From assembly GCA_963771885.1 (NCBI GenBank), contig CAVYVF010000002.1, positions 224,001 through 288,000 of the forward strand: a DNA stretch of 64,000 bases, in the 5' to 3' direction. Of this stretch, positions 7,310-19,612 are shown piece after piece (positions within the stretch are counted from its first letter, which is position 1; every line of letters begins with the position of its first letter). Source of the DNA: Candidatus Bathyarchaeota archaeon (GTDB taxonomy: Archaea > Thermoproteota > Bathyarchaeia > TCS64). The notes beneath the pieces were generated by a model. That model did not search any database and was not told the DNA's origin. It saw nothing but the letters and a program-made list of their open reading frames with translations. A program made the translations under genes and the position numbers.

Positions 7310-7860
7310 TGTCGGTATCGGAAAAGCGGCAAGTCAAACTGACTGAGCTCGAGGCGGCGCTCTACTCTGCTGGACACCCGCTCGACATGGAGGAGCTTAT
7401 GCAGGCGCTCGGGAGCAGGTCTGAGAAGATGGTGCTACGCTACGTCGAGGAGCTCGCTAAGAAGCTCGACGCACGCGGCGGCGCGCTCGAAGTGAAGAGC
7501 CTCCCCGGCAACAGGGTCGTCATGCAGCTCCGCCCGGAGTACGGGAAGATGGTGCGCCAGTTTACGAACCGGCCTCTCCTCACTGTCGGTCCCCTAAAGA
7601 CCCTCGGGTACATCGCTTACAACCAACCGATCGAGCAGGCGCAGGTCCTCGACTACCGCGGCGTCCACGTCTACACTCAACTGAAGCTGCTGGAGGATAT
7701 GGCACTGATATCTAGGGAGCGCATGGAGAAGGGGGTCATCATAAAGACGACGCCCTTCTTCGCCGACTACTTTGACCTCAGCCCAGACCCGGGGAGGAGT
7801 AGGCTCCAGATAATCGAGCTTTTCAGTAGCCTGCACCCGGAGCTCGTGGCGAGGGGCTAG
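7306..7860 (+). CDS. scpB: KITE subunit ScpB
   Basis: LEAALYSAGHPL, LKTLGYIAYNQPI, TTPFFADYFDL. Confidence 0.88.
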   Translation: MMSVSEKRQVKLTELEAALYSAGHPLDMEELMQALGSRSEKMVLRYVEELAKKLDARGGALEVKSLPGNRVVMQLRPEYGKMVRQFTNRPLLTVGPLKTLGYIAYNQPIEQAQVLDYRGVHVYTQLKLLEDMALISRERMEKGVIIKTTPFFADYFDLSPDPGRSRLQIIELFSSLHPELVARG

Positions 7861-8883
7861 CAGACGCGGGGAATCGGCTCCCCTATCGGCTTTCGGAGTA
7901 TCCTAGTGCCGCCGACCTGCGTCTTCATGAGAACCATGCCGGGGCGCTCGGCTTTGACCTCGCCGATGATTGCGGCATCAACTCCATATTTTGTAGCCTT
8001 AATTGCATCTAGTGCTGCGTCCGCCTTCTCAGGGGCGACGCAGATGACCGCTTTGCCCTCGCATGTGACCTCGTAGGGATCGAGGCCCAGCATATCGCAG
8101 GCGGAGCGGACCGCCTTCTTAACGGGAACCTTACCGTCTTCGAGCCATATGCTCACCTTCGACTTCTCCGCGAACTCGTTGAGGGCAGCAGTAAGGCCCC
8201 CCCTCGTGGCGTCCTTCATCGAGTGGATGCCTCCTACATCTAGAGCGGCGCTGATGGTCTCGACAGATCGGGGAGACGTCTGAGATAAGCTCCGTCTTGA
8301 AGCTGAGCCCACTACGGACGCTCATGAGTGCCGTACCGTGATCTCCAACGGTTCCCGTCACGATGACCCTGTCTCCTGGCTTGGCTTGACTGTCGAGTAT
8401 CCGAGGCCCGTGGAGCACTCCCACGCCCGTTGTGGATATGACGACCCCATCGAGCGAGCCAGCGGGCATAACCTTGAAGTCACCACTAATTATCGCTACG
8501 CCAGCCTCCTCAGCGGCGGCATTCATCGACGCGACGAGCTTCTTCAGGTCGGCGATGGAGTAGCCCTCCTCGACGATTATAGCATCGAGTATGGCGACGG
8601 GGTTCGCACCCATAACAGCTGTGTCGTTTACCGCGCCGCAGACGGCGAGCTTACCCAGGTCCCCGCCAGGGAAGAAGATGGGGTCGACCGTGTGTCCGTC
8701 CATGGTAAGTATGACCTCCTCACCGCCGATCCTGATTGAGGCCCCATCATCAAGTGCGTCGAGAGGGACGCCGTTGAGCGCCTGTCTCCTCGTGAAGCCC
8801 TTGAGGAACAACTCCTTGATGATAGCGTCCATCGCGGTACCGCCGGCGCCGTGGCTGAGCTTTACGAACTCGTCATTCGCCAA
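7857..8883 (-). CDS. hypE: Hydrogenase maturation protein HypE (frameshift near 8265, probably a sequencing error)
   Basis: LSHGAGG, DPIFFPGGDLGKLAVCGAVND, MKDATRGG, C-terminal PRVC; split between ORFs 8131-8883 and 7857-8312. Confidence 0.9.
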
Positions 8884-9785: not shown

Positions 9786-10058
9786 GTGCCCCCAAGAGAG
9801 GAACAGCGAAAACCGCACAGCATAGGCACCGTCATGCATGTCTCCAAGAGTACGGGTCAGCTCATCGTCAGAGCCAAGGAGGAGGCTAGCATAGGCGACT
9901 TCGTCTACGACTCAAAGCGCAAGCGCGTTGGCGTTGTCTTCGACTTCTTCGGTCCAGTCGACGGTCCTTACATCGCCGTCAAGCCGCATGGAGATCCCGC
10001 CGCTTTCGTTGGCGCCGAGCTCTATGTCGAGGAGAGACGTAGGGAAAGGCGACGCTAA
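9786..10058 (+). CDS. gar1: H/ACA RNP subunit Gar1/Naf1
   Basis: IGTVMHVSKS...VGVVFDFFGPVDGPYIAVKP. Confidence 0.85.
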   Translation: MPPREEQRKPHSIGTVMHVSKSTGQLIVRAKEEASIGDFVYDSKRKRVGVVFDFFGPVDGPYIAVKPHGDPAAFVGAELYVEERRRERRR

Positions 10059-11224
10059 CCCCGTAAGTAGTCTCGAATCTCGACGATTTTACCCCCCTTC
10101 AAGAATACTCTAGGTACACGTCTGGCTATGGCGCACGTGACCTCGTGGGGGATCGTTTCAAGCCATGTCGCCATCTCCTCGACGCTAGGAGCACATCCCC
10201 CACCGAAGAGAGTGACCTCGTCACCAATCTCAGCTGCCTCGGCGTCTGTCAGGTCTATCATACACTGGTCCATGCAGACGCGCCCCACTATCGGCACTCT
10301 GTTTCCCTTGAAGTCGACCCAGCCCCTATTTGACAGCGCCCTCCGGTACCCGTCGGCGTAGCCTATTGGGAGCGTGCCAATTATGCTCAGGCGCTTCGCT
10401 TTGTATATTATTCCGTAGCTAATCCCTGCTCCTTTGGCGACGGCTTTGACGTTTGAGAGCCGAGCCTTGAGCGCCATCGCAGGCTTGAGGTTCACTCTCT
10501 TAAGGTTCACGTCGGGACCAGGTTCATATCCGTAGAGCATAATGCCTGGTCGCACCATGTCGAGGGCGTACTCGGGAAGGTCTATGATTGCTGCGCTGTT
10601 TGAGACGTGTCTAATCGGCGGCTCGACGCCGAGCCTTCTCAGCTCAGTGAGGACCCATGTGAACAATTCGTATTGGTGGCGCGTGTAGGTCTTGTCTGCG
10701 GCATCGGAGACAGCGAAGTGTGTGAAGATGCCTTCAAGCTCTACGTTGGGGAGGGCGGCGATCTCGGCGATGGCGCGTATCGCCCCGCTGCTTGGCTGGA
10801 ATCCTAGGCGCCCCATCCCTGTGTCCACCTTGACGTGCGCTGTCGCGACCACGCCGAGCCTCCCCGCGGCTTCATTGAGCGCCTCTGCCTGCTGTGGCGT
10901 GTATACTGTCGCCGACACGTTATTCTCGATGAGCGTCTCGTAGTCGGCGTCGGGTGTGTAGCCCAAGTTCAGTATCGGCGCCTCGATACCGGCCTTCCTC
11001 AGCTCGAGTGCCTCGGTTAGCGCCGCGACGCCAAGCCTGTCGGCGCCGTTCTCGAGAAAAGTTTTCGAGGCTGTGACTGCTCCATGTCCGTAGGCATCCG
11101 CCTTCACCGCCGCGAGTATCTCAGCGCTGCTGTCGGCTAGCCTCCTGACCTCACGGATGTTGTTCGCGAGGGCGTCAAGGTCCACCTCCGTCCACGCAGG
11201 CCGTGGGATGGGCATCGCGTCCAT
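10055..11224 (-). CDS. alr: Alanine racemase (PLP fold III)
   Basis: AVKADAYGHG (PLP lysine), HVKVDTGMGRLG, ISYG, IGYADGY, GRVCMDQ. Confidence 0.95.
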   Translation of the reverse strand: MDAMPIPRPAWTEVDLDALANNIREVRRLADSSAEILAAVKADAYGHGAVTASKTFLENGADRLGVAALTEALELRKAGIEAPILNLGYTPDADYETLIENNVSATVYTPQQAEALNEAAGRLGVVATAHVKVDTGMGRLGFQPSSGAIRAIAEIAALPNVELEGIFTHFAVSDAADKTYTRHQYELFTWVLTELRRLGVEPPIRHVSNSAAIIDLPEYALDMVRPGIMLYGYEPGPDVNLKRVNLKPAMALKARLSNVKAVAKGAGISYGIIYKAKRLSIIGTLPIGYADGYRRALSNRGWVDFKGNRVPIVGRVCMDQCMIDLTDAEAAEIGDEVTLFGGGCAPSVEEMATWLETIPHEVTCAIARRVPRVFLKGGKIVEIRDYLRG

Positions 11225-11302
11225 AACGTGTAATCCATCGCATCTCCCCAATATCGGTTGCCTTCCAGAATTGGTTTTAAGCTAAGGTGAGGATCGTGAT
11301 GC

Positions 11303-12007
11303 ATGGCCTCGGGCAGGATTCTAATAATCCAGAACGACCCCGTGGAGAACCTCGGCTTGTACGAGGCGTTTCTCAGGGAGAAAGCCGAGGTGGATGTAGC
11401 TCACGCCTACTCGATGAAGGTGGGTGAACGATTCCCCGGCACGGATGCTTACTCAGCGTTCATCATTGGTCCCACACCAATCTCAGCAAACGCGGTCGAG
11501 AAGCACCCCTTCCTTGTGTGCGAGTGGGAGTACTTGTCCCGTATTGTGGGGAGCAACAAGCCGGTGCTCGGAGTCTGCTGTGGCGGGCAGATTCTCGCGA
11601 GGCTCCTCGGCGGGGAGGTCGTGAGGAGCCCGAGCAAGGAGGTTGGGGGCTACACTGTGAAGCTGACAGACGCGGGTATTTCTGATCCGCTCTTCCGTGA
11701 CTTCCCTGTGGATGTGCCTGTTTTCCATTGGCATAGTGACATGTTCAAGGTCCCGCCGGGAGGTAAGCAAATTGCCCGCGGTGACCCGTGCCCCATACAG
11801 GCATATGCCTGGAGGAACATACGTGGTGTTCTCTTCCACCTAGAGATTAACCACCACGAGGCGGAGCGTTGGGCGTCCGCCTACCCCGAAGAGTTAGCAG
11901 CTGTGGGGAAAACGAGGGATCAAGTGCTCGAGGAGTGCCGTATGAGGGAAACCGAGATGAGTCGGCTCGCCGAGAAGCTCATCGACAACTTTCTTAATCT
12001 TACCTAA
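11303..12007 (+). CDS. Class I glutamine amidotransferase-like hydrolase
   Basis: LGVCCGGQ nucleophile elbow, FHWHSD, FHLE. Confidence 0.85.
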   Translation: MASGRILIIQNDPVENLGLYEAFLREKAEVDVAHAYSMKVGERFPGTDAYSAFIIGPTPISANAVEKHPFLVCEWEYLSRIVGSNKPVLGVCCGGQILARLLGGEVVRSPSKEVGGYTVKLTDAGISDPLFRDFPVDVPVFHWHSDMFKVPPGGKQIARGDPCPIQAYAWRNIRGVLFHLEINHHEAERWASAYPEELAAVGKTRDQVLEECRMRETEMSRLAEKLIDNFLNLT

Positions 12008-12061
12008 CTGGTAAACCTCATCAACTCGAAGCACCAAATTTAGTCGGTTGGTGTTTCTAGC

Positions 12062-13195
12062 ATGAAGATAACTAAGGTCGAGATAATCCCCGTCAACTTG
12101 CCGAAGAAGAAGGTGCTCTCCCTCTCCCGCTACGGAAAGCTGGGTGAGGGGACGCCCTTCGAGTTCATCTTGACGCGCATCCATACGGACGAGGGCGTCA
12201 CCGGGGTCGGCGAGTGTCCGCCTCTCCCACCACTCAGCCCCGAAAACCAGGGAGTTGTCGCCGAGATGCTGAGGCGCTGGATCGTCCCCAACATCATAGG
12301 GATGGACCCCTTCGACCTCGAGGGCATCTGGGAGAAGATGGACTACTGGGCCCCCACGTACCCAATGGCGAAGGCAGCCATCGACATGGCCCTCTGGGAC
12401 ATCATGGGCAGGAGCCTGAACGTCCCAGTCTACAAGCTCCTCGGAGGGGGATCGAACCCCAAGAAGATACCGAACGCCGGACTTATTGGCATCGACACCC
12501 CAGCAAAGGTCGCCGCCGAGGGGAAGCGCCTCGTAAAAGAAGGCTACACGGCCATCAGGCTCAAGATAGGCCCGAAGAGGGACGCCACATGCGTAAAGGC
12601 GATTCGTGAAGCCATAGGCGAAGATGTAGTACTTCGCGTCGACTGTAACCAGGGCTACGCAGCCCACGAAGCGATCAAAATGATCAGGGAGATAGAGCAG
12701 TGGGGCGTCGAGCTCGTGGAGCAGCCGACCGTCTGGTGGGACTTTGCCTCGATCGCTAAGGTCGCGGGTTCAGTCGACACGCCCATAATGCCACATGAAT
12801 CTCTGTTCTCTATGGCCGATGTGAAGACCTTAATCGATATGGGTGCGATTGGCGTTTTAGGGCTGAAGACCTACCGACCAGCCGGGGGAATAACCAACGT
12901 TAAGCGTATACTCGACATGGCTCGGGTGATGAACATCCCGACACTCATGCACGACGACCTTGAGATGGGAGTCAGTCTTTCCGCTGCATCCCATATAATC
13001 GCGGGCTGCGGGAGGGCCATCACACAGACTTGTGAGCTCAGCGGGTTCCCAGAGTGGATCAACGAGGATGTCATCAAGGAACCCGTGAAGTTGGAGGGCG
13101 GTTACATCGCGCCCCCGAAAGGGCCGGGGCTCGGCTTCGAGCTCAACGAGGCGGTCGTCAAGAAGAACACGACGGGTATAATAGTCGTTCAGTAA
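12062..13195 (+). CDS. Enolase superfamily, MLE/dipeptide-epimerase-like enzyme
   Basis: AAIDMALWD, RLKIG, VDCNQG, EQP, GPGLG. Confidence 0.88.
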   Translation: MKITKVEIIPVNLPKKKVLSLSRYGKLGEGTPFEFILTRIHTDEGVTGVGECPPLPPLSPENQGVVAEMLRRWIVPNIIGMDPFDLEGIWEKMDYWAPTYPMAKAAIDMALWDIMGRSLNVPVYKLLGGGSNPKKIPNAGLIGIDTPAKVAAEGKRLVKEGYTAIRLKIGPKRDATCVKAIREAIGEDVVLRVDCNQGYAAHEAIKMIREIEQWGVELVEQPTVWWDFASIAKVAGSVDTPIMPHESLFSMADVKTLIDMGAIGVLGLKTYRPAGGITNVKRILDMARVMNIPTLMHDDLEMGVSLSAASHIIAGCGRAITQTCELSGFPEWINEDVIKEPVKLEGGYIAPPKGPGLGFELNEAVVKKNTTGIIVVQ

Positions 13196-13293
13196 TTCCT
13201 CAGATATTCTCTTAGGGATTTCACGAGGCGCATGAATACTAACAATTTATATTCTCGCCTTTGCGCACATGTGCAAGGAGTCCAACGACAGTA

Positions 13294-14871
13294 TTGTCCC
13301 TGGAGCCTTGTCCCAGAGTTCTGGTCGGCGGCACACTAATTGATGGTACGGGCCGCCAGCCAATCACCGACAGCATCGTTGTGATGCAGGGCGACTACAT
13401 ATTAGCCGCAGGAAAAAAGGGTAAGATCGAGGTACCGAAGGGGGCCGAGGTCTACGACGTCACCGGCATGACTGTAGTGCCGGGTTTCATCGATAGCCAC
13501 TGCCACTTCTACGGCATGGGTCTCTCGATGATACGGGACGTCCAGCTCCGCGACACACCCTCCCTCGAAGGCGCTTTGACCCGCCTCAAGGAGAAGGCTA
13601 AGGCAGCCAAGAAGGGGGAGTGGATAATCGGCAAGGGCTGGGACGAGTCCAAGTGGCCCGAGAACAGGTACCCCACCAAGCAGGATCTCGACGCCGTCTG
13701 TAAGACAAACCCCATGATGATCGTCAGGATATGCGGCCACATGTTAACCCTCAATACCGCCGCGCTGAAGATGGGGGGAATCACTGGAAAGACCCCGCAG
13801 CCTGAGGGCGGACATATCGACATGGGTGATGACAGAGAGCCCACGGGCATACTCAGGGATTGCAGGCACCTAATAGAGACCTGCATCCCACAGGCGAGTG
13901 AGGAGCAGGCAGTCGAGGGTTTGAAGGTCGCGTCCGAATACGCGCTCAGCCTCGGATGTACGAGCGTAGGCGACGCCGGGTTGGGGGCGGACGCCCTCAA
14001 GGCGTATCAGACAGCGCTCGCAAAGGGCATGCTGAAGGTCCGCGCTTACCTCTTCCTCAACGAGACGGTCCAGAAGCAGAGCTATGAGGTCGGAATCAGG
14101 ACAGGTTTTGGCAACGATATGATAAAGGTCGGGCCAACGAAACTGTTAATGGACGGTAGCCTCGGCGCCCGCACCGCAGCGCTCTTTGAGCCGTACACTG
14201 ACGAGCCCTCTACGAAGGGCTTACTGATAATGCCGCCCGAGGCCCTCGACGAGAAGGCGAAGGCTGCCAACGAGCACGGCAACCAGCTAGCAATACACGC
14301 TATAGGCGACTACGCTATCGAGTGCGTCATAAACAGCATACAGGCTGCCCTCAAAGAGAAGCCTCGAAAGGATCACCGCCACAGGATCGAGCACTGCGAG
14401 ATACTCACCGCGGGGCAGATCGAGAGGATCAAGCAGCTTGGGATAATCCCCGCCGTCCAACCGAACTTCGTCGGCGAGTGGGCGGGACCGGGCAGCATGT
14501 ACGAGCAGCGCCTCGGGGCAAATCGCAACAAGCTGAACAACCCTTACAGGATCATGCTCGACGAGGGTATAATCTTCGCGTTCGGCAGCGACGGTATGCC
14601 CTTCCACCCGATCTACGGTATCTGGAGCGCTGTAAACCACGGCATCAAGGAGGCCAGGATAAAGCTGGTCGAGGCGATAAAGTGCTACACTCTTAACGGC
14701 GCCTATGCGAGCTTCGACGAGAAGCTGAAGGGGAGCATCGAGGTCGGAAAGCTGGCCGACATCGCTGTCGTGGATAGAGACCTTACTAAGATCAAGGCGG
14801 AGGACATACGGGATGCCAAGGTCTACATGACCCTTGTCGGTGGGAAGATCCTCTACCACAAGGGGCTTTAA
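13294..14871 (+). CDS. YtcJ-like amidohydrolase (Amidohydro_3)
   Basis: PGFIDSHCH, DGSLGARTA, HAIGD, RIEHC, GSD, GKLAD; likely TTG at 13294 downstream of AAGGAG. Confidence 0.9.
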   Translation: MSLEPCPRVLVGGTLIDGTGRQPITDSIVVMQGDYILAAGKKGKIEVPKGAEVYDVTGMTVVPGFIDSHCHFYGMGLSMIRDVQLRDTPSLEGALTRLKEKAKAAKKGEWIIGKGWDESKWPENRYPTKQDLDAVCKTNPMMIVRICGHMLTLNTAALKMGGITGKTPQPEGGHIDMGDDREPTGILRDCRHLIETCIPQASEEQAVEGLKVASEYALSLGCTSVGDAGLGADALKAYQTALAKGMLKVRAYLFLNETVQKQSYEVGIRTGFGNDMIKVGPTKLLMDGSLGARTAALFEPYTDEPSTKGLLIMPPEALDEKAKAANEHGNQLAIHAIGDYAIECVINSIQAALKEKPRKDHRHRIEHCEILTAGQIERIKQLGIIPAVQPNFVGEWAGPGSMYEQRLGANRNKLNNPYRIMLDEGIIFAFGSDGMPFHPIYGIWSAVNHGIKEARIKLVEAIKCYTLNGAYASFDEKLKGSIEVGKLADIAVVDRDLTKIKAEDIRDAKVYMTLVGGKILYHKGL

Positions 14872-15079
14872 CCTCATTTTATGGGTAAATTATGCCTCTT
14901 CCTCCACCGAGGAGGATAGGGGTACTATCTGGATTATCTCAATGGCGGTTGAATACGCGATAGCCCTTATTACGCTTCTGCGGGTTATCACCGTAACCTA
15001 AGTAATTGGTAGCATATGTATTGGCTATAACCAGTATCTAGAAATCAAATATATGATACGTTTAGGATAGGAAACTGAG

Positions 15080-15526
15080 TTAATCCGCCGTTTCGATGGT
15101 CTCAAGCTCCTTAATGTAATCAGGCTCAAGCCCATGCTCCTTAGCGCCACTGACCATTAAGCCGAGATACCTCTTCGTAGGCTTAAAGGGACCCTTTGGA
15201 TTCGTCGTTCTGTACGTGGCCGCCTTTACTGCTTTTCCTGTCTCGTCGACGACGTAGATGGTTTGCCTGAAGTAAATACCGTCGGGCACGCCCTCGATGG
15301 AGTCGAGGTGGAGGAGCTCATCGTTATCCACTTCATAGAGTACGCCCCTGACAAGCTTGGCCGCCGCCGGCTCAATACCCGTGACGCCTCCCTTGTAGGT
15401 TCGACTCATGAAGTTGAATTGGACCTCCCAGTTAGGGAGGAACGCCTTACCCTTATAGACCGCCTTGGGGCAATGCCTCTGAAGCGTCGCCGAGTCCAAG
15501 AAGGAACCATATGAGAAGTACAGCAT
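15080..15526 (-). CDS. Gamma-glutamylcyclotransferase family protein
   Basis: YFSYGS, GVLY, LDSIEG, PTKRYL...GAKEHGL...Y. Confidence 0.85.
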   Translation of the reverse strand: MLYFSYGSFLDSATLQRHCPKAVYKGKAFLPNWEVQFNFMSRTYKGGVTGIEPAAAKLVRGVLYEVDNDELLHLDSIEGVPDGIYFRQTIYVVDETGKAVKAATYRTTNPKGPFKPTKRYLGLMVSGAKEHGLEPDYIKELETIETAD

Positions 15527-15575
15527 GGGGCTGATTGGGGATTAATGGTTAAAAGAGTTACCTCGTTTCCGACAA

Positions 15576-16167
15576 TCACTTGGCGCGCTTGTAGTCCTTC
15601 TCGCCCAAGATGTGGCGGTGGTACATCCAGTTCACGTGCCCTGGCGTTAGCTCGACCCTCAACAGGTCACCCTCCGTGGATGAAGCCCTGACGCGTTCCA
15701 TCTCCGCCACAGTCCTGTACCACTCATTAAGCCGTCTGCCCTTATCATCCATCTCTTCGGCGTGGCAGCTGAAATGAGTGTAGCCGTTCTCGTAGCAGTA
15801 GATGTGCACGAGTGTGAAGAGGCTCCCGCCTACCCCCTTGCCCTCGATGAGGCTCGCCATATCGTCGCCGTAGAAGCCACCGGACAGCTCTGCGTCCTCG
15901 TAGCCGAAGAAGAAGGCTAGAGGCTCCCTTCCCTGTCTGACCATCATGAGGAAGAAGCCCTCCTTCTCACCCCTCCTGATCATGTCCCAGACCGTGTACC
16001 TGAGCTCCTCCCTGAACATCTGGGAGTCGATCCTAAGAACCTCGTCTATGAGCACCCTGTCCAGTGTAACATGGACGCTGATCTTTACAGGACTCCCAAG
16101 AAGGGTGCTAAGTCTCTCCTCTACTCTGTCTCGCTGCTTCCTCGAAAAAGGGTGGCTCCTCGCCCAT
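15576..16167 (-). CDS. GNAT-fold acyltransferase-like protein (5' homopolymer frameshift)
   Basis: EGKGVGGSLF acetyl-CoA-binding-like motif A; ATG at 16167 follows the ligase stop, and the frame is restored by removing one T of TTTTT. Confidence 0.5.
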
Positions 16168-16174
16168 GGGGGAG

Positions 16175-17174
16175 CTACTTGATGCCGTACCGCTTAAGAC
16201 CTGCGCCGACAACTTCGCGAATCATGTCGTCGAAGTTCCAGCCGCCTCGCAGCCACATGAAGGGGTAGAAGCTGAAGTCGTCCACCGACGGGTCGGCGTC
16301 GATGCCGGGGAGCGGGTTGATCTCAAGGAAGTATAGTTCGCCGCGGCTGTTGTACCTGAAGTCGAGGCGTCCCCAGTCGTAGCACTGGAGTATCTTAACT
16401 GCCTTAAGGGTGGTCTCTTCGACCTCCCTTCTTGAGCTTGGCGGGTAGCTTGGCAGGGCAGAGGTAGTTGGCTGAGGTATCGTAGATGGTCTTCGCCTTC
16501 TGGCCGAGGACGGTGCCGAGCTCGGGGGCGAACTTGCTGAAATCCATCTCAAAGATGGGAAGGATGCGCGGTTTTTCCTCTCCTATGAAGTTGCCGACTA
16601 TGCCGACGCTGAATTCGCGCCCATCGATGAACTCTTCGGCGAGTATACCCTGCTTGTATACGCCGAGCATCTCCTTGAGTTTCCTGCGCAGCTGCTTCTC
16701 GTCGTGTACCACGTTGTCGATGTTGATGCCGATGCTGCTGCCCTCGTGGCTTGGCTTAAGGATGAGTGGGTACCTGAGCTTGGCGGGAACTGCGTCGTCT
16801 TTCTCGTAGAGGACGGTGAAAGGCGCGGTCTTGACGCCATGCCACTCAAGCACCTTCTTCGTCGTGGGTTTATCGAGGCAGATGGCGGTCGCCATGATGC
16901 CAGCCCCCGTGTATGGAATGCCGAGCATCTCACAGAAGGCGGGGACCTGGCTCTCCCTACTCTCGCCACGGATGCCTTCAGCCCTGTTGAGCACGAGATC
17001 CGGCCTCTCACGCCTGAGTGTCTCGAAGCAGGTCTCATCGGCCTCGATCTGGAGGTACTCCCAGCCGGCGGCCTCGATGGCGTGCTTCACGAGCTCAATT
17101 GTGTGGGGTGGCTCGTACTCGACCTGGAACTCGCCTTTGTCATGGCGAGTGTTACAACAAAAAGCTATCCTCAA
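16175..17174 (-). CDS. D-Ala-D-Ala ligase-like ATP-grasp enzyme (frameshift near 16428)
   Basis: GIPYTG, LDKPTTK, LKPSHEGSSIGI, EEFIDGREFSV, RLDFR, FLEINPLPG. Confidence 0.88.
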
Positions 17175-17184
17175 CTTATTGTGG

Positions 17185-18547
17185 CTAGGGGACGTCCGAG
17201 AGGACCTCCTTGTAGATGCTCAGGGTCTGATTCTTGATCTTCTCTGGCATCGTGATCGCATTCGTGGATGCCGAAGAAAAGTCTTGTAGAGCTCGTCTTC
17301 GCGGCCCTTAGCCTCTTCGAGGAACCTCTGCTCGAACTCCTGAGTCAGGGGGCTCCTGTCCCCGTTCTTCCATGCTAGGTAGAAGGCGAATAGCTGCTCG
17401 TCGCGGCCCCTGCCCGTAAGGGCGTAGGTGTTGACGTCGCTTCCGCCGAAGAGGCTGAAGTACTCCTTACAGTCCTCCGTGAGCATGTTCCTGTTGAGCC
17501 CGACGGTCTTGGGGTCGAAGCCGCACGCCTTGATGAGTAGGTACATCTTGCTGCAGACGCTGCAGCTCATGCACCAGCGTGTGTCGCGGCCAGCTTCGGT
17601 CTCGACGAAGCAGCTCATGTGGTACTTGGCGACTTCGGGGTATCTCTTGTAGAGGGCGTAGACGACTGCGATGTCGTTGAGCGGCTCTATGACGCTCATC
17701 GTGCGGACGCCGCCGTTTGTGAGGAGGCGGGTGATGAGGTCGATGTTAACTGGTCCACTTGTGGCTCTGGTCGAAGGCGGGGTAGCAGATGTAGCCCTCG
17801 CTGTCGTAGTAGTACTCGCTGCAGCTCTGCTCGTTGCCGAAGAGTATGTACTTCGCTCTGGAACGTGTTGGCGATAGGGAGGAGCATCATCGCGTACTGG
17901 GTGTTCTGGAGTCCCCAGCCGATCTCCGTCTTGCCAACGCCGAGGCGTATGCCGTCGCGCAGGTGGCCTGTCGTGTGGATGATCTTGTTCAGCTTCACCT
18001 TGAACTCGTTCTCGAACTCTTTGGCGAGCACGTCCTTGTGCTTCTCCTCGTATAGGAGGAGGGGCTCGACGACGTACGCTGCCTGCGGGTTGAGTCCTAG
18101 TTCGCGGCACACCGCCCACGTGAGTAGGCTGTCCTTGCCGAAGCTGAGGGCGACGACGCTGCTGTCGTCCCTGCTCGGCTGCTTATAGGTCGGGAACTTT
18201 ACGTCGTAGTCGTTGAACTTGATCTTCAGGTTCATGAACTCCTTGATGAGCTCCGACGTGCGTGTCCCGTCTACGTCTGCGCAGCTTGGCAGGTCCATCA
18301 GTAGGTTCTGAAAGAACTGCGTCTGGAAGAAGGGGGCTGAGGTGTTGTACCTGAGCTCGCTCTTCCGGAGGGTCAGGGGGAGGTGGACGGTCTCAGCGTA
18401 GACGAGGTTGTCGAAGAGAACGTCCTTCGCCTCCTGGGGATAATTCTTCCAGAAGCCGTTGGGGTACTTTACGACATACCGCGACCCGCGGAGATTAATT
18501 TCATAACCCGTCTCGATCTGTCTCGCTTCAATGGAGAGGCTAGACAC
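17185..18547 (-). CDS. MurL-like PP-loop ATP-dependent epimerase homologue (three frameshifts)
   Basis: Reconstructed motifs in order: SFGKDS, GNEQSC, DQSHKW, IEPLNDIAV, HMSCF, WCMSCSVC. Confidence 0.6.
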
Positions 18548-18636
18548 TATACATATACCTGCGTGGACTTTCTATCCGGAGACGATAACTCATTAATGCT
18601 ACTTATTATTGCTTACTATTAGGTTAGACCCAGATC

Positions 18637-19612
18637 TTGACTGCAATGTTGCAAGACGGAATTAATCAAGCATGGGATCGGCGACACGATATTTACACAT
18701 TCCCGCAATCTCGAACAGTTGCTTGGATACAGCAATATTTACCTGAAATTTGAGGGCGGCAACCCGACTGGGACGATGAAGGACCGCGCGTCCTACGCCT
18801 GTCTCAGGCTGGCTAAGAGGAAGGGTTACGGGGAGGTCGTCATAGCCTCATGCGGTAACTTCGGCGCGAGCTATCGTCAGCACTATCACGATTCTTCGGC
18901 GTCAAGGTGCACGTCTACATTCCCGAGAAGTACCACACGCCCCGCATAGCATCCATGGAGAAGCTGGGCGGGATCATACACAGGGCTCCCGGCACCTATG
19001 AGGACGTTGTCGCCCTCTCCAGTGAGGAGGCGGCGAAGCGTGGATGGTACAACGGGAACCCCGGTACACCCGAGAACAGGAAGGTATCCATCGAGGCATA
19101 CGCTACGATCTCCTACGAGATCGCAAAAAGGCTAGGGGACGCACCTGACGTGGTCGCTGTCCCAACAGGCAACGGCACGACCATCGCTGGAATCAACCAC
19201 GGCTTCCAGGTCCTCCTAAGGAGAAGGAAAGACAAAGAAAGCACCCGCATTAATTGCTGCTAGTACAACGGGTGGAAACCCCGTAGTCTCCTGTTTCCTC
19301 GAAGGAGAGAGGATGATCAGTGACTTGAAGCCGGACAGCATCGACGAGACCAATGTAAACGAGCCCCTCGTCAGCTGGATTAGCCTTGATGGGCAGGACG
19401 CCCTCGACGCGGTCTGGGAGAGCAAGGGCTGGGCTGTACATATCGCCGACGAGGAGATGATCCGGTACTCGGAGATCCTTCTTCGCGAGGAGGGTCTCTC
19501 GGTGTTGCCCGCTTCCTGTTCATCCGTCGCCGCCCTCCCCCTCTACATCAAGGAGAGAAAGCTGAGGAAGGGCCTTGACCTCGTTGCTTTACTCACGGCG
19601 AGGAACTTCTGA
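18637..19612 (+). CDS. Threonine-synthase-like PLP fold II enzyme (several frameshifts)
   Basis: IGDT, LKFEGGNPTGTMKDRA, ASCGNFG, PTGNGTT, EEGLSVLPAS. Confidence 0.8.

Follow-up and report, generated by a model that had tools for sequence, protein, structure and literature searches.

What would an archaeon without murein do with a gene set that looks equipped to make D-residue peptides? The question is raised by a 64,000-nt stretch of DNA from a Candidatus Bathyarchaeota archaeon (contig CAVYVF010000002.1, positions 224,001-288,000), which we call the window and whose numbering is used below. An earlier reading of its letters, here termed the original prediction, pointed to three co-oriented genes for a PP-loop protein likened to the epimerase MurL ("MurL-like"), an ATP-grasp ligase resembling the D-Ala-D-Ala ligase Ddl, and a GNAT acetyltransferase, with a gene for a fold-II pyridoxal phosphate (PLP) enzyme diverging from them. 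We find that these four genes form a conserved cassette that probably builds a small acetylated peptide with an unusual, possibly mirror-image amino acid. The cassette is apparently undescribed, and its four-enzyme pathway is a variant on small-peptide synthesis by ATP-grasp and GNAT enzymes. A literature search judged by titles and abstract openings, with few subscription journals covered, returned no publication on it. The accessible main-text passages of a survey of QueC-family gene clusters do not mention MurL and leave three archaeal clusters unanalyzed (PMC13329287).

A scan of Genome Taxonomy Database (GTDB) genomes recovered 155 stretches that encode a relative, and the best 80 were analyzed as loci. 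Twenty of these were set aside for contig ends less than 1.2 kb upstream or less than 3.2 kb downstream, leaving 60 informative loci. All 60 have the ligase gene directly after the MurL-like gene, 59 have an adjacent PLP gene, 56 a GNAT gene, and 55 the complete set of four; these counts are not independent trials, since the loci are akin to one another and also supplied the detection profiles. The co-occurrence is far beyond chance. The PLP gene lies divergently upstream in 26 loci, convergently downstream in 26, and co-oriented upstream in seven, and the ligase and GNAT genes are fused in one Bathyarchaeia lineage (L041:6689-8101, L043:6696-8321, L044:6715-8316; the L043 product has 542 amino acids). 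A linkage that outlasts rearrangement, together with the fusion, speaks for a single pathway. The gene neighborhoods bear out the original proposal of a non-ribosomal, amide-bond-forming system that includes the PLP enzyme.

By record title, the holders are mostly Bathyarchaeia, together with Thor-, Hod-, Hermod-, Heimdall-, Borr-, and Promethearchaeota, one member of the Nitrososphaeria, and one Spirochaetia chromosome. The 24 other relatives compared yielded no copy of the cassette beyond family f1, whereas the GTDB scan does show it in other lineages. Bacterial-titled records with the cassette (L076, L077, L096, L105, and L126) are probably mis-binned or mis-titled, and at least L077, L105, and L126 share the Bathyarchaeia gene order. 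Beyond the four genes, nothing is conserved across lineages in the best 80 loci, be it a transporter, glycosyltransferase, precursor peptide, or membrane protein. The fusion lineage carries a convergent M20/AbgB-like amidohydrolase gene two genes downstream from the ligase-GNAT fusion, and a Heimdallarchaeota locus (L124:10988-13259) has genes for an OSBS/N-acylamino-acid-racemase-type enzyme and a beta-lactamase-fold hydrolase between its GNAT and PLP genes.

In the window's assembly the genes are broken, and they might be taken for a chance cluster or for decaying remnants. Each gene is longer than a whole number of codons by as many bases as were inserted, giving ten coding frameshifts: four in the MurL-like gene (near 17857, 17752, 17282, and 17257), one each in the ligase (near 16429) and GNAT (near 16127) genes, and four in the PLP gene (near 18660, 18874, 18882, and 19224). 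Every break amounts to one extra base relative to three intact relatives, and in contigs of four unrelated public runs the extra base is missing at the nine sites listed (16127, 16429, 17257, 17282, 17752, 17857, 18587, 18660, and 18874), a comparison that rests on relatives' genomes and other runs' contigs rather than on reads of the window's own strain. Flanking 4Fe-4S ferredoxin and AOR genes bear similar single-base insertions (20160 and 20289), and a hypE-like gene (7857-8883) is split across frames. A split gene in this assembly is best put down to sequencing error in the first instance.

The MurL-like gene was matched in all 17 genomes of the same genus and in 26 of 36 of the same family, mostly as open frames of 452-473 amino acids; the exceptions are a 388-amino-acid frame (G002), a copy at a contig end (G025), and two copies with internal stops (G024 and G030). 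Pairwise dN/dS values among three relatives are 0.02-0.05 for the MurL-like gene, 0.04-0.09 for the ligase, 0.10-0.21 for GNAT, and 0.10-0.14 for the PLP enzyme, and all four genes are thus under purifying selection (0.02-0.21). With intact relatives, other runs' contigs free of the extra bases, and ratios far below 1, the breaks are assembly errors and not the genuine decay that the original prediction had left as a possibility. The frameshifts and the broken copies in G024 and G030 are what a decay or chance explanation could cite; set against these results and a linkage that outlasts rearrangement, it is hardly credible, and decay is rejected for the lineage.

The host genome (G000; 2.46 Mb, 92% complete, with the window on contig C2) agrees with the predicted lack of murein. 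In a genome-wide search for murein genes, FolC was the sole gene with a Mur-ligase domain and no transpeptidase was found. The single PF00953 gene matches no NCBIfam family at E≤1e-20. Murein or pseudomurein synthesis was rejected as a role, since NF053643 scores 43.7 bits against a cut-off of 500. The Asp/Glu-racemase family is represented by three intact genes, in addition to an alanine racemase gene (alr), and by a fourth, split match; family members lie at C7:14434-15084, C23:708687-709337, C6:17166-17816, and C23:893307-893883, one of them above the cut-off for the cysteate racemase CuyB. KamA and DUF1611 were both looked for in G000, and neither was found.

The MurL-like enzyme has an SFGKDSL PP-loop and four cysteines (Cys315, Cys328, Cys331, and Cys334) that are invariant in the family alignment. 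Its predicted structure (predicted local distance difference test score 93.9) resembles QueC (Z 14.6, root-mean-square deviation 3.0, 189 residues aligned) and Cap9 (Z 14.1), with QatC the top match in Foldseek. The model points to a QueC-like PP-loop fold with a Cys4 site; ahead of it, some 125 residues form an additional N-terminal domain that lies beyond the span of most fold matches. The intact protein matched no Pfam family at E≤0.05 and gave no match to PF06508 (QueC), PDB sequence searches with the protein or its profile gave weak PP-loop matches at most, and a plasmid collection searched with the protein gave no match. Neither fold search had a MurL structure among its matches, which does not exclude that one exists.

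Its kinship with MurL is real and distant. For 55 of 59 aligned members, no NCBIfam family ranks above NF041275 (MurL; best E 2e-10), and the nearest Atlas clusters are named MurL (0.97), with MurL domains on 20-80% of cluster members. The NF041275 score is 24.5 bits against a cut-off of 700, a threshold that MurD-linked actinobacterial homologs also miss (210-474 bits). We took as MurL reference eight actinobacterial homologs, three of them checked as adjoining MurD, and defined MurL-invariant motifs from these eight. Profile alignment to MurD-linked MurL gave an hhalign probability of 93.4 (E 3e-7, 112 columns); the PP-loop, N241-E242, S287, and the four cysteines are common to both, and the MurL-invariant GHVP, HQxSK, CxK, and PFECVG are not kept. 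A MurL-like protein from the bacterial operon described below is closer (probability 98.8, 317 columns). A FastTree phylogeny of 55 sequences gives three groups on long branches: MurL, the bacterial-operon group, and a third in which the archaeal family is joined by its paralogs and by metagenomic representatives. Neither the MurD2 neighbor nor the murein pathway expected for MurL was found in the 92%-complete G000.

Judged by these comparisons, the enzyme is a remote relative of MurL and no member of that family, and it would act like a MurL- or QueC-type activation step. The part of the original prediction that recognized a MurL relationship and a PP-loop/Cys-cluster protein is upheld, and the label "MurL epimerase" is not established. 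The available portions of two reports describe MurL as an ATP-requiring, AMP-releasing epimerase that was proposed to adenylate a carboxylate (PMC5808125; PMC8788868). According to the former, bacteria with MurL have no D-Glu-forming gene, in contrast to G000 with its racemase-family genes. MurL's ATP need and AMP release, together with the modeled fold, support carboxylate adenylation well, and we consider this activity strongly implied for the MurL-like enzyme. A stand-alone paralog (about 35% identity) lies at G000:C23:402473-403800 (L047) and also in L045, L046, L048, and L049; it has no ligase or PLP neighbors and occurs in most relatives. In another record (L079:5556-6995), two MurL-like paralogs flank a PLP gene.

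The ligase is an ATP-grasp enzyme with a Ddl fold (PF07478, 118 bits; best Foldseek matches Ddl, TM 0.77), and alignment predicts an intact catalytic center: ten residues of Escherichia coli DdlB are kept (K97, K144, S150, K215, R255, D257, E270, N272, G276, and S281). Residues that we take to form the D-Ala pocket of DdlB (His63, Tyr216, and Leu282) are replaced in all 14 cassette ligases examined by Glu, Thr (13 of 14, with Ser in one), and Phe, respectively. An invariant Glu occurs in the loop of DdlB Glu15, the residue that presumably binds the donor amine, in an alignment register that is ambiguous relative to DdlB. The H63E change is common to a wider ligase group apart from DdlB. KamA aminomutase genes lie within 1.5 kb in 16 of the best 29 spirochaete ligase matches. 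In the window's phylum, 32 of 251 genomes match the ligase at E≤1e-60; of 11 archaeal ligase regions, six have KamA directly upstream, three encode ligase-hydrolase fusions, and two ligases stand alone, with a MurL-like or PLP gene in none. One scanned fusion adjoins genes for gamma-glutamyltransferase and formylglutamate amidohydrolase. Cassette ligases form one clade (Shimodaira-Hasegawa-like approximate likelihood ratio test, 100) within a poorly resolved group that includes the KamA-linked ligases, and a sister relation to the KamA-linked first ligases has an approximately unbiased test p of 0.129. Because this group recurs beside enzymes that make beta- or diamino acids, D-Ala-D-Ala is an unlikely product, and a non-standard, probably basic substrate is likely.

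Relatives of the ligase occur in several other settings. Fusions to an M20-type hydrolase are present in complete genomes of family f21 (L325:6673-8886, L326, and L327; 12 such long-frame matches). A Thioflavicoccus plasmid (L274:1467-6948) groups a related ligase with an EctB-like transaminase, SbnA, cyclodeaminase, and KamA, a candidate diamino-acid peptide pathway. Ligases with the His63-to-Glu change are found on rhizobial plasmids (L132, L133, and L275), mostly amid transposases and in one case beside a CapA-family gene. A GNAT-KamA-ligase-ligase module (L321-L324, L330, L331, L206, and L197) is shared by other Bathyarchaeia, further members of the phylum, and bacteria, and in L206 and L197 it adjoins a PLP-DUF1611-MurL-like operon.

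Profile comparison identifies the third product as a GNAT acetyltransferase. PF00583 scores above its cut-off in two relatives, also matches the L043 fusion, and gives no match to the window's own copy. The family profile matches amine and N-terminal acetyltransferases (best E 1e-5), and the acetyl-CoA motif A residues G111 and G113 are conserved. G000 also carries three stand-alone GNAT paralogs (C22:130981-131589, C23:470801-471370, and C23:469476-470024), two of which lie 0.8 kb apart.

The PLP enzyme has a database name that is probably misleading. An intact relative scores 349.8 bits (cut-off 266) with NF004996 (PRK06381), which is labeled threonine synthase, and 76 bits (cut-off 167) with TIGR00260 (ThrC). 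The ThrC motif Y-R-x-E-G-Q-K-T, whose Arg we take to bind the substrate phosphate, is replaced by V-S-I-E-A-Y-A-T, and a canonical thrB-thrC-aspartokinase-asd operon is present elsewhere in G000. Housekeeping threonine synthesis was rejected on these grounds, and the enzyme is probably not the housekeeping ThrC. The residue before an invariant G-N is Cys in all 67 cassette copies and in each of the 84 bacterial copies that have the motif. The first matches to a profile of the segment are diaminopropionate (DAP) ammonia-lyase, serine racemase, a serine-dehydratase-like protein, and aspartate racemase. By stretch offsets, the Cys (profile position 13) aligns with Ser84 of human serine racemase (3l6b) and Asp120 of E. 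coli DAP-lyase (4d9g), which would place an ionizable residue at the re-face position of fold-II racemases. In the accessible text, Ser84 is the re-face base of serine racemase, and S84A abolishes racemization (PMC6424897); Asp120 is named catalytic in DAP-lyase, which acts on both L- and D-DAP (PMC4000059). This alignment suggests a candidate racemase or D-specific lyase with Lys/Cys two-base chemistry.

A second, bacterial operon also pairs PLP and MurL-like genes. Among 301 genomes of the spirochaete's phylum, PRK06381 is present in ten and lies beside a MurL-like gene in eight of them; seven cases have a DUF1611-MurL-like fusion followed by genes for creatininase and a dipeptide-epimerase-like protein. 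A metagenome scan yielded at least 601 stretches, and the best 80 were analyzed. In the 32 of these loci with 4.5 kb downstream, DUF1611 is present in 32, the MurL-like gene and an enolase-family epimerase gene in 31 each, and creatininase in 24; KamA is next door in three of the best 80. DUF1611 matches the N-acetyltransferase DgcN at 145 bits, below the cut-off of 480. The stable core across both operons is a PLP enzyme with the Cys, a MurL-like enzyme, and an N-acetyltransferase, for which the two operons use unrelated folds. Since the bacterial operon already encodes an ATP-free epimerase, which would short-circuit an ATP-driven one acting on the same substrate, the MurL-like enzyme fits better as an amide-former than as a second epimerase. 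The phylum of G062 (301 genomes) gave one NF004996 match, on G062's own, probably mis-binned contig. A third family context is seen on a Chondrinema plasmid (L131:7890-11504), where a PRK06381 PLP gene accompanies genes for polyphosphate kinase 2, an aspartoacylase-family protein, and a 2OG-Fe(II) oxygenase, with no annotated MurL-like neighbor.

A scheme with presumed substrates, step order, and product can be fitted to the observed linkage, folds, and residue positions. We tentatively favor a cytoplasmic route to a small N-acetylated peptide or peptide amide that contains a PLP-made non-standard residue and whose C-terminus is capped at the expense of ATP. With Lys48 and, on the opposite face, Cys72 serving as its two acid/base groups, the PLP enzyme would produce a non-standard amino acid; a D-enantiomer is the likeliest one, and a diamino acid the alternative. 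The Ddl-like ligase would join two amino acids via an acyl-phosphate, and its His63-to-Glu change suggests a donor with a basic group or extra amine. The GNAT enzyme, judged by its fold, would acetylate a free amine with acetyl-CoA. Finally, the MurL-like enzyme would adenylate the terminal carboxylate and pass it to ammonia or an amine, leaving the peptide capped or extended. A D-residue somewhere in the pathway is rather probable in our view, and, if one is present, the PLP enzyme is a better candidate source than the MurL-like enzyme. The osmolyte NAGGN (N-acetylglutaminylglutamine amide) is made by the asnO-ngg route, which uses a GNAT and an ATP-grasp enzyme, sometimes fused, and a PP-loop amidotransferase. 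Because the cassette's logic parallels this synthesis, a compatible solute or stress metabolite would, by analogy, be the likeliest role of the product. A bolder and more doubtful extension is that PRK06381 "threonine synthases" are misannotated Lys/Cys two-base racemases that, with the ligase, GNAT, and QueC/MurL-type enzymes, give Bathyarchaeia and Asgard archaea a D-amino-acid peptide unrelated to murein or pseudomurein, the PLP and MurL-like enzymes being a mobile core that sediment bacteria reuse with another acetyltransferase.

Several observations weigh against this scheme. Substrates and products of all four enzymes are predictions from sequence. The full-length PLP enzyme is closest to threonine synthases, and Thr is visible at the Cys-equivalent position in the ThrC alignment. 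Cysteine synthases and ThrC presumably carry Ser or Thr there without racemizing, so the position alone is no proof of racemization. The MurL-like and GNAT families both have stand-alone paralogs. No glutaminase domain accompanies the PP-loop of the MurL-like enzyme, and an adjacent class-I glutamine amidotransferase (GATase) gene is lineage-limited (10 of 80 loci). Cassette holders include groundwater, soil, and hot-spring samples, a habitat statement based on runs with more than a small share, and they give no pointer to salt stress. Lastly, the only characterized member of the MurL superfamily, in the portions available of the two MurL reports, is an epimerase (PMC5808125; PMC8788868).

In one alternative, the ligase adds an L-residue and the MurL-like enzyme adenylates and inverts this new C-terminal residue to D in one direction, much like the MurD2/MurL pair, while GNAT acetylates the peptide and the PLP enzyme supplies the other residue. 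The top ranking of NF041275, the MurL-named Atlas clusters, and the shared PP-loop, N-E pair, serine, and cysteines all favor it, as do the altered ligase residues Y216 and L282 and the invariable position of the MurL-like gene directly upstream of a peptide ligase, much as MurL adjoins MurD2. The low family score, the separate clade on long branches, and the four lost MurL motifs count against it, and we regard it as unlikely.

Two further explanations were weighed. The enzymes might salvage or detoxify environmental D-amino acids, with GNAT and the ligase trapping D-residues in N-acyl or peptidyl form, the PLP and MurL-like enzymes converting them to L, and peptidases releasing them. The bacterial operon holds DgcN-like and DgcA-like genes, and the accessible part of one report has DgcN-DgcA turning D-Glu into L-Glu (PMC10845958); the same-genus neighbors described below and the alignment of the PLP Cys with the catalytic Asp120 of DAP-lyase also suit such a role. 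Two ATP-consuming steps plus acetyl-CoA would be costly while racemases are present, though, and the archaeal cassette has no conserved hydrolase or transporter beside it, the catabolic-looking neighbors being confined to 9-13 of 80 loci, so salvage appears improbable. Alternatively, the peptide could be a tag or tail that the QueC-like enzyme transfers to a protein N-terminus, cofactor, lipid, or surface glycan. Two of the enzymes nearest in structure, Cap9 and QatC, couple an adenylated acid to partner proteins, according to the available portion of a report (PMC13279940), and the extra N-terminal domain of the MurL-like enzyme also counts in favor of a tag. With no acceptor protein, glycosyltransferase, membrane protein, or exporter conserved beside the cassette across lineages, we consider a tag quite improbable.

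The arrangement of the locus, obtained by six-frame reading and family scans of the window, is given in Table 1. The minus-strand gaps are 10 nt (MurL-like/ligase), 7 nt (ligase/GNAT), and 49 nt (GNAT/GGCT), matching the earlier description of three closely spaced co-oriented genes followed by a gamma-glutamylcyclotransferase (GGCT) gene. The AT-rich divergent spacer of roughly 90 nt was likewise seen correctly; it measures 89-98 nt depending on the PLP start, its GC content compares with 57% for the window, and it is presumed to be a bidirectional promoter. A sigma-70 promoter and terminator scan performed at chance level, with a bacterial model unsuited to archaeal promoters. Contigs from RNA runs (X15 and X18) overlap parts of the relatives' GGCT, ligase, MurL-like, and PLP genes, possibly through DNA carry-over, and we make no claim of expression from them.

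Table 1. Features of the cassette and its surroundings, in window positions
Feature	Position	Strand	Remarks
QueC-fold PP-loop adenylating enzyme, remote MurL relative ("MurL-like"; activity predicted)	17185..18547	-	GTG..TAG; 452 aa in relatives; core
Ddl-fold ATP-grasp ligase, His63-to-Glu group	16175..17174	-	332 aa; core
GNAT acetyltransferase	15576..16167	-	196 aa; core in 56/60 loci
Gamma-glutamylcyclotransferase (GGCT/AIG2-like)	15080..15526	-	PF13772 + PF06094; accessory, lineage-limited neighbor
Fold-II PLP enzyme, family PRK06381	18646 (or TTG 18637)..19612	+	invariant C-G-N; 320 aa from ATG; core
AT-rich divergent intergenic spacer	18548..18645		98 nt, 38% GC; kept among closest relatives (13 copies aligned)
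Alanine racemase (alr)	10055..11251	-	TIGR00492, 387.5 bits; lineage-limited, outside conserved cassette

The original prediction had also counted GGCT and alr (the latter 3.8 kb away) among the system's parts, and this is not supported. GGCT occurs in 13 of 80 loci, each of which shares 83% identity or more with the query, and alr in nine of 80, nearly all in the closest relatives, and both were rejected as core members. An enolase-family enzyme (11 of 80), the GATase, and an amidohydrolase (12 of 80) are almost wholly confined to the same relatives. In the window, alr, the class-I GATase, the enolase-superfamily enzyme, an amidohydrolase-3, and GGCT make up a block (10055-15526) that is kept in the closest relatives and whose content suggests salvage of D-amino acids or gamma-glutamyl peptides. 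In L051, L052, and L054 the block also has an inserted UbiA-family gene.

Bathyarchaeia and Asgard archaea abound in sediments; most are uncultured, and few specialized metabolites are known from them. The cassette is compact, strongly conserved, and consists of four soluble enzymes, each of an already known type and with intact copies in existence. Its product may prove to be a new compatible solute, or a new D-peptide, from archaea that have no murein. Work on the cassette could also give a function to a mislabeled PLP family, possibly a new Cys-based type of racemase, and could show whether the epimerase chemistry of MurL arose from a QueC-type amide ligase.

Comparison with known systems places each enzyme near a familiar counterpart. 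As with MurL and MurD2, a PP-loop/Cys4 enzyme predicted to adenylate its substrate is encoded beside an amino-acid ligase and has the motifs GKxS, NE, and SC..WC..C..C in common with its counterpart, whereas the cassette partner is a Ddl-fold ATP-grasp enzyme and not a Mur ligase, murein genes are absent, and GNAT and PLP enzymes are added. QueC, Cap9, and QatC are the best structural matches, with the same PP-loop and four-Cys site, although identity is 13-15%, the MurL-like enzyme is about twice the length of QueC, and no deazaguanine or defense genes lie nearby. E. coli DdlB shares the ligase's fold and ten catalytic or ATP-binding residues and differs at the three pocket positions and in substrate-loop insertions, the cassette ligase grouping instead with KamA-linked enzymes. 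Fold-II serine and aspartate racemases and DAP ammonia-lyase likewise have a potential acid/base residue before the G-N; in the PLP enzyme this is Cys and not Ser or Asp, and its overall sequence is nearer threonine synthase.

At the level of whole pathways, DgcN-like and DgcA-like genes of the D-glutamate pathway (NF041892 and NF042940) accompany the PLP and MurL-like families in the bacterial operon, whereas the archaeal cassette has GNAT and the ligase instead of DUF1611. The cassette differs from the asnO-ngg route in its Ddl-type ligase, in a PP-loop enzyme that lacks a glutaminase domain, and in the additional PLP enzyme. By analogy, both combine a GNAT enzyme, an ATP-grasp ligase, and a PP-loop carboxylate-activating enzyme, a combination that in the asnO-ngg route yields an N-acetyl dipeptide amide.

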